Below are positions 13,824-32,286 of a stretch of DNA of 37,995 nt, piece after piece. Both the position numbers and the translations under genes were made by a program. The notes under the pieces were generated by a model. The model made no database searches and was not told the origin of the DNA. It saw only the letters and a list, made by a program, of their open reading frames with translations. The stretch comes from an uncultured Gammaproteobacteria bacterium. GTDB lineage: Bacteria; Patescibacteriota; Microgenomatia; Levybacterales; GWA1-39-11. Positions within the stretch are counted from its first letter, which is position 1; every line of letters begins with the position of its first letter. Where the stretch lies: positions 1 through 37,995 of the forward strand of contig CAZFJW010000001.1 of NCBI GenBank assembly GCA_964519355.1, written 5' to 3'.

Positions 13824-14576
13824 TTAGTGGCTTCCTTCAAGAAGCAGTACTGCAATATACATCACAACTATTCCTAAAATAAGCAATACGCTTTCAAAAA
13901 CAGCAAAGCCTTTTTTATTCTCCTCATGAATATCAGGGATAATATCGGAAGTTGCTATATATATAAAAAATCCAGCGGTTATTGCAACAAGAAATGGAAT
14001 GTATTGCTCTAAAATTCCACCCAAAGAGAATGCTAAAATTGCACCTAAAAATGCAGTAAATGCACTGAAGACATTGAACAGCAATATTTTTGAACGTTTG
14101 ACTCCAGCCTTGAGCATAAGGCCAAAATCACCAATTTCTTGCGGAATTTCATGTGCAGCAACAGCAAAAGTTGTAAGCATTCCAAGATGCGGGTCAGTCA
14201 TAAAAGTAATGGCAATTATGACCCCATCGATGAAATTATGCATTGAGTCTCCAAAGATAATAAGCGGAACGACTGGCTTGGTTACCTTTTCATCAGTGTC
14301 ATGGTGATGCCGATGGGTCCAATGCAAAAACCGCTCAGCAAAGAAAAAAATAATAATCCCCAGAAGCGCAAAAAGAAGAACATTATGCATATCGCCGCCC
14401 TCCAAGGCTTCGGGCAAGAGGTCGAAAAACGCAGTACCTAAGAGCACGCCCCCGGCAAGCGCTGCCAAACCATGTATCATTCTATGTGAAACTTTATTAT
14501 TTAGAAGAAGAACGATTCCCCCAACAAGAGAAATAATACTCCCAATCGCTGTATACAATAAAATTTGAAATAACAT
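13824..14576 (-). CDS. ZIP family divalent-metal (zinc) transporter
   Basis: Polytopic protein with a His-rich loop (WTHRHHHDTDEK) and the HEIPQEIGDF motif. The track start is TTG; ATG at 14574-14576 is preferred. Confidence 0.8.
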   Translation of the reverse strand: MLFQILLYTAIGSIISLVGGIVLLLNNKVSHRMIHGLAALAGGVLLGTAFFDLLPEALEGGDMHNVLLFALLGIIIFFFAERFLHWTHRHHHDTDEKVTKPVVPLIIFGDSMHNFIDGVIIAITFMTDPHLGMLTTFAVAAHEIPQEIGDFGLMLKAGVKRSKILLFNVFSAFTAFLGAILAFSLGGILEQYIPFLVAITAGFFIYIATSDIIPDIHEENKKGFAVFESVLLILGIVVMYIAVLLLEGSH

Positions 14577-14683
14577 TTTCAAATCGTATCATATATGCAA
14601 CTCACTTGCAACACGCAATATGTCTCTTCCATTACTCTTTGCAAAATTTATAGTTTTTCTGGTAAGATAATCTTTATTCTAAA

Positions 14684-15778
14684 ATGATTGATCAAAATAA
14701 AGAGAATGAAAAACTTATTGTAATCGCAGAAAAACTTATCTCTCTACGAAAAAAAGTAGGCCTCAATTCTTTTCTTGTGCCAGTTAATTTTGAGGAAGAA
14801 CGAGAGAAATTCTTTGACTCTCCGAATTATCAACCCCAGTTCAGGTATAACACTAAAGAAATACCTGAAAATATAGAGGATGAAATTGCCCAGCTTAAAA
14901 TTGACGTTGTTCATCTTCAAGTTCACCCCCAACTCAATTTACATCTCCAAAATTATATTGTAGATCTTGAGATGCTCCTTGGCACATTAAGATCCATTGG
15001 AACAGAAGCATTTACCGACTACGCATGTGATCTTTTCTCAGAGGAACTCGAGGACGCAACTCGAGAACATTTTCTTGATTCTGAATTTAGATTTGAAAAC
15101 GAAGAAAAAGGTGAACTTCACAACGCACAGCAAATAAAGGAAGCATTTGACAAAGAACTTGAGTTTTATAATTTAAAAAACTATTCAGTTCAGATCATTG
15201 CAAATGGTCCAATAATCGTTGCGGGGCCCACTAGAATTATTTTAGGAGAGGATATCAAAAGATACTCCAACAATGTACGAAGACTTATCATCCATGAAGT
15301 TGAATCCCATGCCATACAGGAATACAACATAGAAAACGCCCTTTCCCCCTTTCTTTCTCTTATCCCGTATGCCAAAATGCGGCTTTGGAGTGAAGGACTT
15401 GCAGTATTTAATGAAGTTCACACCAACACAATAACCCGCTCATCATATCTCAATTATACAAAGCGTTTTGAGGCTGTAAAAATGATGAATAATTCGTTCC
15501 GAGAAATATTTGACTATCTTAATGAATCACTCCACGAAAAAGAAGCATACAAGATTGCATTTAGAGTTAAAAGGGGTCTTTCAGATACGAGTCGTCCCGG
15601 AGGCTTTCCAAAAGATATCGCGTACGCTATCGGCTACTTAAAAGTAAAAAGATACGTCGAAAAAGGAAATTCAAGGTCATTTTTATACAGAATTCCAGAA
15701 CCTGAATTTGGCTCACTTCTCAAATCCCTGAATCTTCTTCCTGAAGATCAAATTGTACTCCCTAAGTTTATCGATTAA
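14684..15778 (+). CDS. DUF1704 / MATCAP-like metallocarboxypeptidase (QEGLA-motif family)
   Basis: HEVESH (HExxH) followed by WSEGLAVFNE, a variant of the family QEGLA motif. 364 aa. Confidence 0.7.
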   Translation: MIDQNKENEKLIVIAEKLISLRKKVGLNSFLVPVNFEEEREKFFDSPNYQPQFRYNTKEIPENIEDEIAQLKIDVVHLQVHPQLNLHLQNYIVDLEMLLGTLRSIGTEAFTDYACDLFSEELEDATREHFLDSEFRFENEEKGELHNAQQIKEAFDKELEFYNLKNYSVQIIANGPIIVAGPTRIILGEDIKRYSNNVRRLIIHEVESHAIQEYNIENALSPFLSLIPYAKMRLWSEGLAVFNEVHTNTITRSSYLNYTKRFEAVKMMNNSFREIFDYLNESLHEKEAYKIAFRVKRGLSDTSRPGGFPKDIAYAIGYLKVKRYVEKGNSRSFLYRIPEPEFGSLLKSLNLLPEDQIVLPKFID

Positions 15779-15805
15779 TCTATTTGGTATAATACGATTT
15801 AGATA

Positions 15806-16579
15806 ATGCAATTTTTGATCCCAAATAGTGTTAGATGGATCACCTCGACTTTGCTGCCAAAAAATGAGGCGTTTTACCCTTCTCTTTCAAGAAGAATTGA
15901 GCATTCAGACCAACATTTCATAGACAACTTTTATATACAACGCTCTGAAATTGATGAAAAGGATTTTCTTGAAAAAATTTTTCCACTCTATGAAAAAGAA
16001 ATAGTAATTCGAGAAAACTATATTTTCGAACCAGCTGAATTAAAAAATAAATATCTTGAGAGAATTCGAGATGGAAGAAAATATTTTCTGTACGGATTTT
16101 ATCAAAAAGAAACAGAAAGTCTTGTTGGTGGGTTTTTATACAGCATCCCGCATGAAATAATCTCAGTCGCAATGAGATTTTTTGACAGATCTATTAATAA
16201 GAATACAAAAACTCAAGCAACTTTGGATTATTGGGGAGAATGGAAATTTTATGATTTTGTAAAAAATGAAGGGCATAACGCCTATTCTTTAGGGATTGAT
16301 CATTATCCAAATATAGATCGTGCTGGCCTACCGTTGTATAAATTAAAAGTTGGATCACTGCCATGCGTGAATATTAAGTCAGAATCAATTACAATACATC
16401 CTGACCCAAAAAAAATCACAGACCATATGATTTTTTTTACCGATGAGGATAAAAGCGGACATTACAGAAAGTTGAATTGTCTATATAAGAACTACATCCA
16501 AGGAGGAGTTCTTGATGAGCTTGAAAAGGTTACAAAGTGGGCTGGATTGGAATTTTACAAAGAAGAAATAAAATTATGA
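15806..16579 (+). CDS. Hypothetical protein, possibly FemAB/GNAT-like acyl- or aminoacyl-transferase fold
   Basis: 257-aa ORF. The fold suggestion is weak and rests only on a C-terminal G-x-D...GL.LYKLKVG pattern. Its stop overlaps the next gene's ATG (ATGA at 16576-16579). Confidence 0.5.
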   Translation: MQFLIPNSVRWITSTLLPKNEAFYPSLSRRIEHSDQHFIDNFYIQRSEIDEKDFLEKIFPLYEKEIVIRENYIFEPAELKNKYLERIRDGRKYFLYGFYQKETESLVGGFLYSIPHEIISVAMRFFDRSINKNTKTQATLDYWGEWKFYDFVKNEGHNAYSLGIDHYPNIDRAGLPLYKLKVGSLPCVNIKSESITIHPDPKKITDHMIFFTDEDKSGHYRKLNCLYKNYIQGGVLDELEKVTKWAGLEFYKEEIKL

Positions 16580-17328
16580 AAATCAATGGAATAAAAACTC
16601 ATACGATTACAAAAAAAGATACTGACATTACAAAAGTTATATCTAAATATGTAACCCGCTTGGAAGAGAAATCAATTCTCATTATTACTTCAAAAATAGT
16701 TTCTATTTGTGAAGGAAATATGGTATCAACCAGCTCTACTGATAAAGACACGCTTATTCAGAATGAGGCCGAATACTATATTCCAAGGACCAAAAGTCAC
16801 TATAACGTATGTCTTACTATCAACAATGGAATTCTTGCACCATCAGCTGGTATTGACGAATCAAACGCAGACGGCAACTATATACTTTGGCCAAAGGATT
16901 CACAAAAATCGGCCAATTCAATTCGTGAATTTATAACAAATTACTATAAAGTCCAGCATGCAGGAGTTCTTATTATCGATAGTAAAACTACTCCACTTAG
17001 GTGGGGAACTACTGGGATTGCACTTTCATGGAGTGGATTTTTGCCATTGAAAGACTACATCGGCGCACCAGATTTGTTTGGCAGGATTATGAAAATGACC
17101 AATCAAAGTCTTATTGATGGACTAGCCTCTGCTGCCAATCTTGTTATGGGCGAAGGAAATGAAGCAACTCCTATCGCTATTGCTCAAGATCTCTCATTTA
17201 TTGAGTTCGTTGATAGTAATCCAACCCAAGAAGAAATCAACAACCTTATGATAAATCCAAAGGACGACCTGTATGAACCGATCCTTTCACATGCTCCATG
17301 GAAAAAGCGTGTTGACACGAAGCCCTAA
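16576..17328 (+). CDS. CofE-like (F420-0:gamma-glutamyl ligase family) protein
   Basis: ITSKIVSICEG, SAGIDESN, LIIDSKTTPLRWGTTGIALSWSG and KDYIG..DLFGR...ANLVMGEGNEATPIA align with CofE motifs. The start is at Met14 of the track ORF. Confidence 0.8.
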   Translation: MKINGIKTHTITKKDTDITKVISKYVTRLEEKSILIITSKIVSICEGNMVSTSSTDKDTLIQNEAEYYIPRTKSHYNVCLTINNGILAPSAGIDESNADGNYILWPKDSQKSANSIREFITNYYKVQHAGVLIIDSKTTPLRWGTTGIALSWSGFLPLKDYIGAPDLFGRIMKMTNQSLIDGLASAANLVMGEGNEATPIAIAQDLSFIEFVDSNPTQEEINNLMINPKDDLYEPILSHAPWKKRVDTKP

Positions 17329-17348: not shown

Positions 17349-18140
17349 ATGGAAAATTCAGAAAGCTCCCCAACGTCCGGTTCTATTGCCCCAGAACTTA
17401 TTAACCCAAGTCCTGTACCAGAAATTGTGATGCCTTCAGGCAATCAACCCGCAGAGATCCATCGTTCAATTCGCTATCGCCTGACACATCTCTTCTCACG
17501 AGGTGAAAAATTAAAACCCCACGAATTACAAAAACAAAGAGATGACTTAAAAAATGCTGCTAGCCAAGGAACAGAAACACAAAACTCTACTCCTTCTCCA
17601 GTCCCCGAGACGGCTCCTAGTCAAATTTCAGGAACTACAGTAGAAACTACCGCCCCTCTCCCTCAAGGATTACAAGAAATTGGCACAACCCAAGAAGGCA
17701 GTGCATCAAATGTTGACTCAATGATCCAGGAACTTGCAGAAAAAGAACACACAGCAGCAGGTGCACAAGAAGCCCCTCCTGCTTCCCCACCACAAAAAGA
17801 CCCAATATCATCTGATACTTCAGGAGCAATGGACGCAATGACAGCAAGAATGGCACAGATGCCCGATACAGCATCCTCCACCGCTCAACCAGGAGAAAAT
17901 TCGAATACAGCTGCAGCAAGACCCGATCTTCCGCCAGCAGAGTCGTCTTCCACACCTCCACCTGTTGAGGCTCAACCAAATCAAAACACACAAATTATTG
18001 ATTTCCAAACAGCAGCCGCACGAGTTCAAGAATCAAAAGCAGTTCAACCTGGCGCCATATCATCCGAAGTCCCCCCGGCCCCACCAGTACAGACTTCAGA
18101 AGTATCGCAAAATCCTCAGCCGCTTGTTAAAGCAGCATAA
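17349..18140 (+). CDS. Low-complexity P/S/T/A/Q-rich (probably disordered) protein
   Basis: 263-aa ORF with a short basic segment (RSIRYRLTHLFSRGEKLK), otherwise compositionally biased. The overlapping antisense ORFs are typical artefacts of such bias. Confidence 0.55.
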   Translation: MENSESSPTSGSIAPELINPSPVPEIVMPSGNQPAEIHRSIRYRLTHLFSRGEKLKPHELQKQRDDLKNAASQGTETQNSTPSPVPETAPSQISGTTVETTAPLPQGLQEIGTTQEGSASNVDSMIQELAEKEHTAAGAQEAPPASPPQKDPISSDTSGAMDAMTARMAQMPDTASSTAQPGENSNTAAARPDLPPAESSSTPPPVEAQPNQNTQIIDFQTAAARVQESKAVQPGAISSEVPPAPPVQTSEVSQNPQPLVKAA

Positions 18141-30945: not shown

Positions 30946-30968
30946 TTCATACTACATTCTTCAATTAT
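30934..30968 (+). repeat. Right heptad-repeat arm flanking the four-helix-bundle gene
   Basis: CATACAA CATAATT CATACTA CATTCTT CAATTAT. Its reverse complement matches the left arm at 20 of 30 positions plus one G-U, with blocks of 12 and 6 bp. It contains the stop TAA (30943-30945) and abuts the glyA ATG. Confidence 0.7.
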
Positions 30969-32286
30969 GAACCTAAAACAAACCGACCCCCAAATCTTCC
31001 AACTCATAAAAGATGAGGAAAAAAGACAGCGCGATGTGCTTGAGATGATACCGTCTGAGAATTACACATCAAGCGCTGTGCTAGAAGCTTTGGGATCAGT
31101 TCTAAACAATAAATATTCTGAGGGCTACCCCAAAAAAAGATATTATCAGGGAAATGCCGTAGCTGACAGCGTTGAAATACTTGCACAAGAACGGGCAAAA
31201 AAACTTTTTAATGTTCCTTACGTTAATGTCCAGGCACTATCAGGAAGTCCGGCAAATTTGGCAGTATACACTGCGCTTCTGGAACCGATGAAGGGTAAAA
31301 TTATGGGTCTATCTCTTGCATTTGGAGGTCATTTGACTCACGGACAGCCTCAATCATCTACTGGAAAATTTTTTCGCTCCACCCTTTTTGAATTAGGAAA
31401 AGATGCGCATCTTGATTATGCCGCAATAGAAAAACAAGCACTAGCTGAAAAACCCGATATTATTGTCTGTGGATTTACCGCGTATCCTCGTGAAATTGAC
31501 TTTGCAAAATTCGGCAAAATTGCTGATAAAGTCGGATGCTATCTCATGGCAGACATTTCCCATATTGCAGGGCTTGTTGCCTCAGGTGTCCATCCCTCTC
31601 CAGTTCCTTATGCACATATCATAACCACAACAACTCACAAAACACTTCGAGGCCCAAGAGGAGCCCTCATTATGGTGACGGCAAAGGGCCTAGAAAAAAA
31701 TGCTGACCTTCCTAAGAAAATCGATACAGCGATTATCCCTGGACTCCAAGGTGGACCGCACGACAACCAAACAGCAGCAATTGCTGTTGCACTAAAAGAA
31801 GCTGATACAAAAGAGTTCAAAAAATATTCACTACAAATTGTAAAGAATGCAAAGGCTTTATCTGAAGAACTTATCAAGCGTGGTTTTGATCTGGTAAGCG
31901 GTGGGACGGATAACCATCTTTTGTTGATAGATCTCCGAAATAAAAAAGTAAATGGTGCGGTTGCTGCATATGCGCTCGAGAAAGCAGGAATAGTTCTCAA
32001 TAAAAATGGTGTACCATTTGATACCAATCCGCCATTTTATCCCTCGGGAATTCGGCTTGGAACTCCCGCAATAACTACTCGCGGCATGAATGAACGTGAC
32101 ATGAAAAAAGTTGCTGAGTGGATTGATAGAACACTGCAAGCAGTTGGTGAAGCTGTAATTCCAAAAATTCAGGAAGAAAGAAATCCTTGGATGCGGGATC
32201 AGAAAAAGCGCATAAATTCTAATGGTGAAATTAAGAAAATTGAAAAAGAAGTGAGGAGTTTTGCAACTAAATTTCCGTTGCCTTAA
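30967..32286 (+). CDS. glyA: Serine hydroxymethyltransferase
   Basis: 439 aa with TTTTHKTLRGPRG (PLP-lysine motif) and other SHMT motifs. Confidence 0.95.
   Translation: MNLKQTDPQIFQLIKDEEKRQRDVLEMIPSENYTSSAVLEALGSVLNNKYSEGYPKKRYYQGNAVADSVEILAQERAKKLFNVPYVNVQALSGSPANLAVYTALLEPMKGKIMGLSLAFGGHLTHGQPQSSTGKFFRSTLFELGKDAHLDYAAIEKQALAEKPDIIVCGFTAYPREIDFAKFGKIADKVGCYLMADISHIAGLVASGVHPSPVPYAHIITTTTHKTLRGPRGALIMVTAKGLEKNADLPKKIDTAIIPGLQGGPHDNQTAAIAVALKEADTKEFKKYSLQIVKNAKALSEELIKRGFDLVSGGTDNHLLLIDLRNKKVNGAVAAYALEKAGIVLNKNGVPFDTNPPFYPSGIRLGTPAITTRGMNERDMKKVAEWIDRTLQAVGEAVIPKIQEERNPWMRDQKKRINSNGEIKKIEKEVRSFATKFPLP

Follow-up and report, generated by a model that had tools for sequence, protein, structure and literature searches.

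The rlo operon of Pseudomonas encodes a seven-transmembrane (7TM) inactive transglutaminase, an ATP-grasp enzyme and a protease (PMC11957051). Among the eukaryotic enzymes that edit tubulin tails, the MATCAP/TMCP peptidases are marked by an HExxxH motif, a spacing that is unusual and typical of this family, together with an EEG-type motif (PMC10499314). CT611/FolC2 of Chlamydia, a member of COG1478, complements an Escherichia coli folC mutant (PMC1971073; PMC4161248). Here, we analyzed a stretch of 37,995 nucleotides (nt) from a bacterium of the order Levybacterales (contig CAZFJW010000001.1; hereafter, the window), in which three consecutive genes encode a MATCAP-type peptidase, a protein of an unannotated family and a ligase of the CofE superfamily. 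The reading toward which we lean is that this apparent operon is a composite, with a probable folate ligase (gene 3) standing next to two members (genes 1 and 2) of an Rlo-like ligase/peptidase system.

The source genome of the window (G000) comprises 1.23 Mb in 121 contigs and is 98% complete; in what follows, labels beginning with L, G, C and g denote sequence loci, genomes, contigs and genera, respectively. The layout given in the original prediction, namely, three co-directional genes with a 27-nt gap followed by an ATGA start/stop overlap, is exact, the overlap lying at 16576-16579. The features on which the argument draws are these (lengths in amino acids, aa):

14684..15778, plus strand: gene 1, 364 aa, putative gluzincin metallopeptidase of the MATCAP/DUF1704 type, soluble
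15293..15310, plus strand: HEVESH, the HExxxH metal-binding/catalytic motif of gene 1 (aa 204-209)
15389..15403, plus strand: SEGLA, the 'EEG/QEGLA' motif of gene 1 (aa 236-240), presumed third metal ligand
15806..16579, plus strand: gene 2, 257 aa, predicted GNAT/Fem-like fold (aminoacyl-tRNA transferase-like), unannotated family
16325..16354, plus strand: GLPLYKLKVG, the motif most strongly conserved across gene 2 and its homologues (alignment of 44 sequences)
16576..17328, plus strand: gene 3, 250 aa, gamma-glutamyl ligase of the CofE superfamily, candidate FolC2 (CT611) type
30967..32286, plus strand: glyA, serine hydroxymethyltransferase (PF00464 at 3.5e-159)

Gene 3 is the only gene of the genome that matches Pfam PF01996 (F420_ligase; 3.3e-40), and it also matches the solved CofE structures 2G9I/2PHN (1.5e-19), so that fold and superfamily are shared with CofE. 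However, the protein stays below the cut-offs of both CofE equivalog models (TIGR01916, 131.8 vs 180.65; NF009809, 130.1 vs 274), and the best NCBIfam model is instead TIGR04132 ('putative folate metabolism gamma-glutamate ligase'), which aligns over its entire length (286.4 bits, positions 1-241 of 241). Because this alignment begins at residue 1 of the protein that starts with the ATG at 16576, this start is preferred over the upstream GTG at 16537. Thus, the earlier description of gene 3 as CofE-like holds at the level of the superfamily but not of the enzyme, given 286 bits for TIGR04132 against about 130 for the CofE models. The expectation that no F420 pathway would be found was borne out as well: in the 98%-complete genome, the best CofD match reached 24.7 bits vs 257, and the searches for CofH and CofC returned no match. 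Given that cofC, cofD and cofH are absent from the genome, F420 is not the substrate of gene 3, and a role in F420 metabolism was rejected.

Canonical folC was not found in the genome either, the top match (26 bits) coming from Mur ligases, and yet the organism uses tetrahydrofolate, because the folate-dependent GlyA is encoded in the window. This combination of a missing FolC with a folate-dependent enzyme is the one expected of a FolC2-bearing genome. The same genome carries a Vut_1 (PF02592, YhhQ-like) vitamin transporter (C23:18113-18748) and a DHFR-like gene. We surveyed the conservation of the trio in 46 relatives and in a 401-genome sample of the phylum. In the latter, a strong TIGR04132-like gene is present in 47 genomes (~12%) and FolC in 68, and the two occur together in 1 of the 401 genomes vs 8 expected (P about 0.001, with kinship ignored). 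Among 14 sampled loci, Vut_1 lies directly upstream of the gene 3 orthologue in 4 (L042, L046, L040 and L048), and probably in a fifth; DHFR lies directly downstream in two genomes of the same class, and ThyA adjoins the orthologue in one genome of the same order. Within the family to which the window belongs, genus g324 has Vut_1-DHFR-gene 3 operons, with the same order at L069 and L073. Such clustering of folate genes is thus seen for gene 3 orthologues, including those from the same family, but none is found around gene 3 in the window. In the maximum-likelihood tree of gene 3 homologues, of which genomes have one copy each, MATCAP-linked and folate-linked copies are mixed, and the MATCAP-linked copies form no separate clade; a further candidate, from L050, sat on a branch of length 10 and was discarded as non-homologous.

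Because of the folate-gene neighbors elsewhere, the near-exclusivity with FolC and the lack of a MATCAP-linked clade in the tree, we consider gene 3 probably a FolC2-type folate glutamyl ligase rather than a CofE. The original prediction had left the substrate of the ligase open; the same three lines of evidence place gene 3 as an orthologue of the FolC2-type folate glutamyl ligases. As with CT611, the ligase belongs to the CofE superfamily and its host has neither F420 genes nor FolC; as with CT611, it aligns full-length to TIGR04132 and has orthologues that cluster with folate genes (DHFR, ThyA). Unlike CT611, it belongs to an organism that would salvage rather than synthesize folate, the neighbors in its relatives are Vut_1 and DHFR instead of folBKPA, its score is under the equivalog cut-off, and it is translationally coupled to non-folate genes. 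Two side observations concern this ligase and its neighbors. FolC2-like genes are tandemly duplicated in G117 (L051, G117:C12 6049-7490), and two copies are present on one contig of another genome (G155:C7). Furthermore, candidate-phyla genomes repeatedly place Vut_1 in one operon with DHFR and the FolC2-like ligase, which suggests that the Vut_1 subgroup in such operons imports folate rather than a queuosine precursor.

Judging by its profile matches, gene 1 encodes a genuine member of the MATCAP family of metallopeptidases. It scores 107.9 bits against PF08014 (MATCAP; threshold 27, E = 7.3e-31) and matches the human MATCAP structures 7Z5G/7Z6S at 3e-8; HEVESH and SEGLA, which the original prediction had singled out, are both intact. 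SEGLA aligns to EEGLA of human KIAA0895L, and an RVKRG...PGGF block is common to both proteins. The gene also scores 119 bits on TIGR02421 (QEGLA, a hypothetical equivalog), under the cut-off of 338.65; its motif reads SEGLA, not QEGLA. Gene 1 thus shares with the eukaryotic MATCAP/TMCP1-2 the peptidase family and the HExxxH and EEG(LA) motifs, but the similarity to the human enzyme is limited to the catalytic core (E = 3e-8). The PF08014 family is present in 76 of the 401 phylum genomes. In many of these copies, which are about 800 aa long and encoded beside 7TM_transglut (e.g., L031/L032), an N-terminal ATPgrasp_ST domain is fused to a C-terminal MATCAP domain, and others stand alone beside an ATPgrasp_ST gene. 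Our literature search turned up no paper on the function of bacterial DUF1704 proteins. Two further observations touch on this family. The same genome encodes a second, weak MATCAP-like protein (C57:147-1850, 568 aa), which matches PF08014 at 2.6e-11 in its central region only. In several MATCAP matches of the phylum (e.g., G024, G147, G322), in-frame TGA, TAA or TAG codons are present, some of which may reflect alternative genetic codes, not pseudogenes.

For gene 2, profile searches yielded no Pfam, NCBIfam or PDB sequence match, and a Pfam scan of 44 family members found nothing significant, the nearest being Acetyltransf_6 (0.051) and ATE_C (0.07), in one member each. An exhaustive search recovered homologues in 68 clusters, with proteins of about 250-275 aa; the family is rare in the phylum sample (3/401 genomes), and scans with the gene 2 alignment detected 1 locus in genome contigs and 4 in metagenome contigs. 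The family signature is GL.L[FY]KLK.G..P, and Y62, G163, G174, L175, K179 and G183 are invariant in the alignment of 44 sequences. The original guess of a Fem/GNAT-like fold agrees with the structure prediction. The AlphaFold2 model of gene 2 (predicted local distance difference test, pLDDT, 96; predicted template modeling score, pTM, 0.92) has a GNAT/Fem-like fold, and its top Foldseek matches are Sbb17/Sba18, L-PGS/A-PGS/MprF, FemX, ATE1 and the L/F-transferase (LFTR), with E-values of 7.5e-7 for Sbb17, 2e-5 for L-PGS, 5e-5 for FemX and 1e-4 for ATE1, at template modeling (TM) scores of 0.45-0.51. The Q/RxxGxG/A motif that binds the pyrophosphate of coenzyme A (CoA) was not found between strand 4 and helix 3, and this loop is equally absent from the matched aminoacyl-tRNA transferases. 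Aminoacyl-tRNA is, therefore, the donor that we infer from the model. The invariant aromatic-Lys dyad in GL.L[FY]KLK.G presumably resembles the Fem/MprF-type motif. Gene 2 differs from the GNAT-fold aminoacyl-tRNA transferases in lacking sequence-profile membership, in its size (at 257 aa, it is smaller than FemX or the aaPGS domains) and in its MATCAP/ATP-grasp context, which has not been described for any of them.

This context is recurrent. Although many gene 2 contexts had to be read from short contigs, about 13 of 14 independent ones adjoin MATCAP-like genes, ATP-grasp ligases that have a 7TM partner, or both, with divergent gene 2 members of 21-38% identity among those recovered. MATCAP lies directly upstream of the gene 2 relative, often overlapping it, at L025/L026, L027, L028, L056 and L060/L061; on the P0016 contig the two are convergent, with overlapping ends, and in genus g328 MATCAP directly adjoins gene 2. 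At L058 the cluster is complete: 7TM_transglut, ATPgrasp_ST and MATCAP are joined by a second ATP-grasp and face gene 2 in convergent orientation; at L030 and L057, ATPgrasp_ST or the second ATP-grasp is directly upstream of the gene 2 relative, and at L029, ATPgrasp_ST and 7TM are convergent with it. In G201 (L023, G201:C7 4578-9375), two tandem gene 2 paralogues next to RecR have as flanking genes two ATP-grasps, one L-amino-acid-ligase-like and one RimK/Ddl-like, together with an open reading frame (ORF) for a divergent MATCAP-like protein, and no CofE. This 359-aa ORF was not significant by BLASTP and was accepted as a divergent MATCAP-like protein on a broader profile match (2.4e-9) and its HEIVVH...EEGLA motifs. 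The only gene 2 context without a recognizable MATCAP or ATP-grasp is that of G073 (L024, G073:C20 7480-9402, minus strand); there, a 640-aa protein that has no Pfam match and contains HEMTH is translationally coupled upstream of the gene 2 homologue. Thus, the pairing of a MATCAP-type peptidase with an amide ligase, as proposed earlier, recurs across genomes, but the recurrent partners of MATCAP-like and gene 2-like genes are ATP-grasp enzymes, not CofE-like ligases.

The MATCAP neighborhoods of the phylum have the architecture of the rlo operon, with MATCAP replacing the retropepsin. What they have in common with RloABC of Pseudomonas aeruginosa, and with RimK/RimB, is that a 7TM membrane protein of the inactive-transglutaminase family and an ATP-grasp enzyme resembling glutamate ligases are combined with a peptidase of opposing action (PMC11957051). 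The genome of the window itself has, on contig C71, a 7TM_transglut gene (645-1586; PF14402, 73 bits) that overlaps an ATPgrasp_ST gene (1576-2916; PF14397, 214 bits), the product of which carries a retropepsin-like C-terminal domain, as expected of an Rlo-like pair; a second ATP-grasp is encoded on C108. The system differs from RloABC in that its peptidase is predicted to be a cytoplasmic MATCAP-type metalloenzyme instead of a secreted retropepsin, in that the gene for this peptidase does not sit with the ligase pair in the window's family, and in the additional presence of the Fem-like gene 2 and the second ATP-grasp. In other lineages the 7TM protein ends in Glu-Glu (L058:8645-9694, L031:1275-2816 and L032:1204-2808), which makes its tail a candidate substrate. 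In the window's family, for which the tail peptide is ...FRFSDIRNHGSK, this lead is not transferable, the tail being altered in 18 of 18 genomes.

How far does the trio itself recur? The order gene 1-gene 2-gene 3-RecR is found in the window's genus and in g328, where gene 2 is only 32-35% identical; in genera g325 and g326, gene 1 and gene 3 stand together, and neither gene 2 nor RecR is part of the arrangement; in other genera of the same family, gene 3 is located in folate operons or other contexts. In all, gene 1 (or, in G417, gene 2) adjoins gene 3 in nine genomes from four genera of one family. ATPgrasp_ST is present in all nine family genomes with that adjacency vs 9 of the 19 other family members. 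None of the other 400 sampled phylum genomes shows MATCAP-gene 3 adjacency, and co-occurrence of MATCAP and CofE-like genes is not enriched in the phylum sample (6 genomes vs 8.9 expected). The neighborhood conservation on which the original prediction was to be judged is, accordingly, real across four genera of the window's family but was not seen in the other 400 sampled phylum genomes. On one metagenome contig (L056, 1039-2361, minus strand), MATCAP-gene 2 and the FolC2-like gene are separated by an oppositely oriented adenylosuccinate-lyase gene, and because of this insertion the trio there is not one transcript.

Under the composite reading, gene 3 would replace the missing canonical FolC. 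Folate would be imported via Vut_1 and reduced by the DHFR-like enzyme; gene 3, using GTP or ATP, would then probably add gamma-linked glutamates to the imported reduced folate, a glutamylation that would retain the cofactor for enzymes such as GlyA. The Rlo-like core would consist of the 7TM membrane protein, the ATPgrasp_ST (RimK/RloC-like) amino-acid ligase and the MATCAP-type metallopeptidase, with genes 1 and 2 acting, as we infer, in trans with the 7TM/ATP-grasp pair on C71. The ATP-grasp enzymes, probably together with gene 2, would build a short peptide tail or peptide. Gene 2 would be an accessory writer that probably moves an aminoacyl group from aminoacyl-tRNA onto an amine of the same substrate, and gene 1 the eraser, probably trimming C-terminal acidic or aromatic residues. 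The ATGA linkage of gene 3 to genes 1 and 2 implies co-expression but not necessarily a common substrate.

Several observations weigh against this reading. Gene 3 is under the curated TIGR04132 cut-off (286.4 vs 350), a value that no genome of the 401-genome sample reaches. The test for exclusivity between FolC and FolC2 ignores phylogenetic non-independence, and about 70% of the sampled genomes have neither enzyme. The structural matches of gene 2 are remote (TM score about 0.5) and include acetyl-CoA-using tandem GNATs. With regard to the Rlo-like part, no MATCAP follows the 7TM/ATP-grasp pair in any of the 18 family genomes (with about 1 kb of flank examined), and the 7TM tail ends in ...RHGSK, ...HHGN or ...RYVSQ in all 18 (L091-L108), so that the presumed Rlo-like substrate may differ or be lost in the window's family. 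Finally, the MATCAP-gene 3 adjacency survives the loss of both gene 2 and the RecR flank in g325 and g326, a persistence that hints at functional coupling and more than simple synteny inertia.

This last point speaks for the original single-cycle idea, in which genes 1-3 would share one substrate and modify its tail reversibly, residues being added by gene 3 (and gene 2) and removed by gene 1. In the window's family, a CofE-type ligase would on this view have replaced or joined the ATP-grasp writer. The adjacency in nine genomes of four genera, kept also without gene 2 and with a different flank, and again at L056, fits such a cycle, as do the 4-11 nt overlaps by which gene 2 and gene 3 remain coupled in relatives and, in the window's family, the separation of MATCAP from a 7TM/ATP-grasp pair whose 7TM tail is no longer Glu-Glu. 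Nevertheless, gene 3 occurs as one copy per genome, orthologous to the copies of folate operons, the adjacency is not seen in the other 400 phylum genomes and the co-occurrence is no higher than expected; moreover, gene 2 and MATCAP occur without an adjacent gene 3, as in G201, which has none in the genome, and at L058 and on the P0016 contig, where none lies within the sequenced flank. The chemistry is a further difficulty: with the characterized MATCAP/TMCP enzymes, no removal of the gamma-linked glutamate at the branch point of tubulin polyglutamylation was observed (PMC10499314), and the products of CofE/FolC2 are gamma-linked. Thus, the single cycle, which family-level adjacency keeps in play, becomes a minority reading that we regard as unlikely. 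A related evolutionary variant, in which the MATCAP eraser of this Levybacteria family left the 7TM/ATP-grasp writer and, re-partnered with the FolC2-type ligase and the Fem-like transferase, now edits a glutamyl tail on folate or protein, appears similarly doubtful. Still less probable, in our view, is a direct role of gene 1 in folate metabolism, as a folylpolyglutamate or p-aminobenzoyl-glutamate hydrolase that trims scavenged host folates or sets the tail length against gene 3. The organism does look like a scavenger of folate: no signature of de novo synthesis was found, FolC is absent, and Vut_1 and a DHFR-like gene are present. That gene 1 adjoins gene 3 in four genera would also be accounted for. 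However, gene 1 is predicted to be cytoplasmic and, therefore, would be of no help to uptake; MATCAP-family genes elsewhere are paired with alpha-glutamate-ligase-like ATP-grasp enzymes; the Vut_1-DHFR-gene 3 operons of other genomes never contain MATCAP; and the MATCAP family has no known gamma-glutamyl hydrolase activity.

A separate question is the donor used by gene 2, which could instead be an ordinary GNAT, that is, an acyl-CoA-dependent N-acyltransferase that caps or acylates an amine on the substrate of the system. The acetyl-CoA-using tandem GNATs 2WPW, VipF (6WQB), 3N7Z and 2HV2 are indeed among the structural matches (E about 3e-4 to 1e-3). Against this, the nineteen best matches are aminoacyl-tRNA-dependent enzymes, the pyrophosphate-binding loop is missing throughout the gene 2 family, the invariant aromatic-Lys dyad presumably resembles a Fem/MprF-type one, and the weak profile hints point to ATE_C as well as to Acetyltransf_6. 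We give this alternative a small but not negligible chance. Taken with the composite reading, the link of gene 2 to the Rlo-like system predicts that the system draws on tRNA-borne amino acids in addition to ATP-grasp chemistry.

If the composite reading is correct, the FolC2-type assignment provides a likely function, glutamylation in Vut_1/DHFR-based salvage, for a gene that is strong in about 12% of the sampled candidate-phyla genomes, and helps explain how folate cofactors are retained in reduced organisms without FolC. FolC2 itself is known; new, for these candidate-phyla members, would be its part in salvaging folate together with Vut_1 and DHFR. The MATCAP/ATP-grasp/7TM system is likewise known already, as an uncharacterized gene neighborhood, and gene 2 founds a small unannotated family linked to it; both the family and the link are new with respect to the literature that we searched. 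By analogy, no other prokaryotic system stands closer to the enzymes that edit tubulin tails. The ligases that partner bacterial MATCAP elsewhere in the phylum are ATP-grasp enzymes, as are TTL/TTLL, with the differences that no tubulin is involved and that, as the nearest 'ligases', gene 1 has a protein of GNAT fold and an enzyme of the CofE type. Should re-partnering turn out to be true after all, the locus would provide one of two firsts, namely, a bacterial MATCAP-family enzyme that hydrolyzes folate tails or a CofE-type ligase that takes part in a writer/eraser cycle. More generally, the locus is a caution that a tight operon structure, here with an ATGA overlap, is no proof of a common substrate.

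Two further features frame the three genes:

14565..14592, plus strand: candidate sigma-70-like promoter, TTGAAA-16-TATCAT (consensus scan, 10/12 matches, weak)
17349..18140, plus strand: P/S/T/A/Q-rich low-complexity ORF, 263 aa, 3' of gene 3, probably outside the module

A terminator scan detected no terminator-like site at either gene junction or 3' of gene 3, its sole match being at 15047-15065, within gene 1. All three proteins are soluble, with no transmembrane-like segment in any. The low-complexity ORF diverges fast (26-34% identity), and BLASTP gave no match to it in genus g328 or in G401, a genome of the window's genus in which the interval between gene 3 and RecR is only about 440 nt. 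Its product was considered as a substrate or scaffold of the module and rejected as a conserved part, being poorly conserved and undetected outside the lineage; the C-termini of this protein and its relatives read ...KAA, ...QAA or ...QAAA. Finally, L014 (CAZBEA010000019.1) shows the same synteny as the window, with Zip followed by MATCAP-gene 2-gene 3 and the disordered protein and with gene 2 at 54% identity; the 'uncultured Gammaproteobacteria' label or the binning of this contig is probably wrong.

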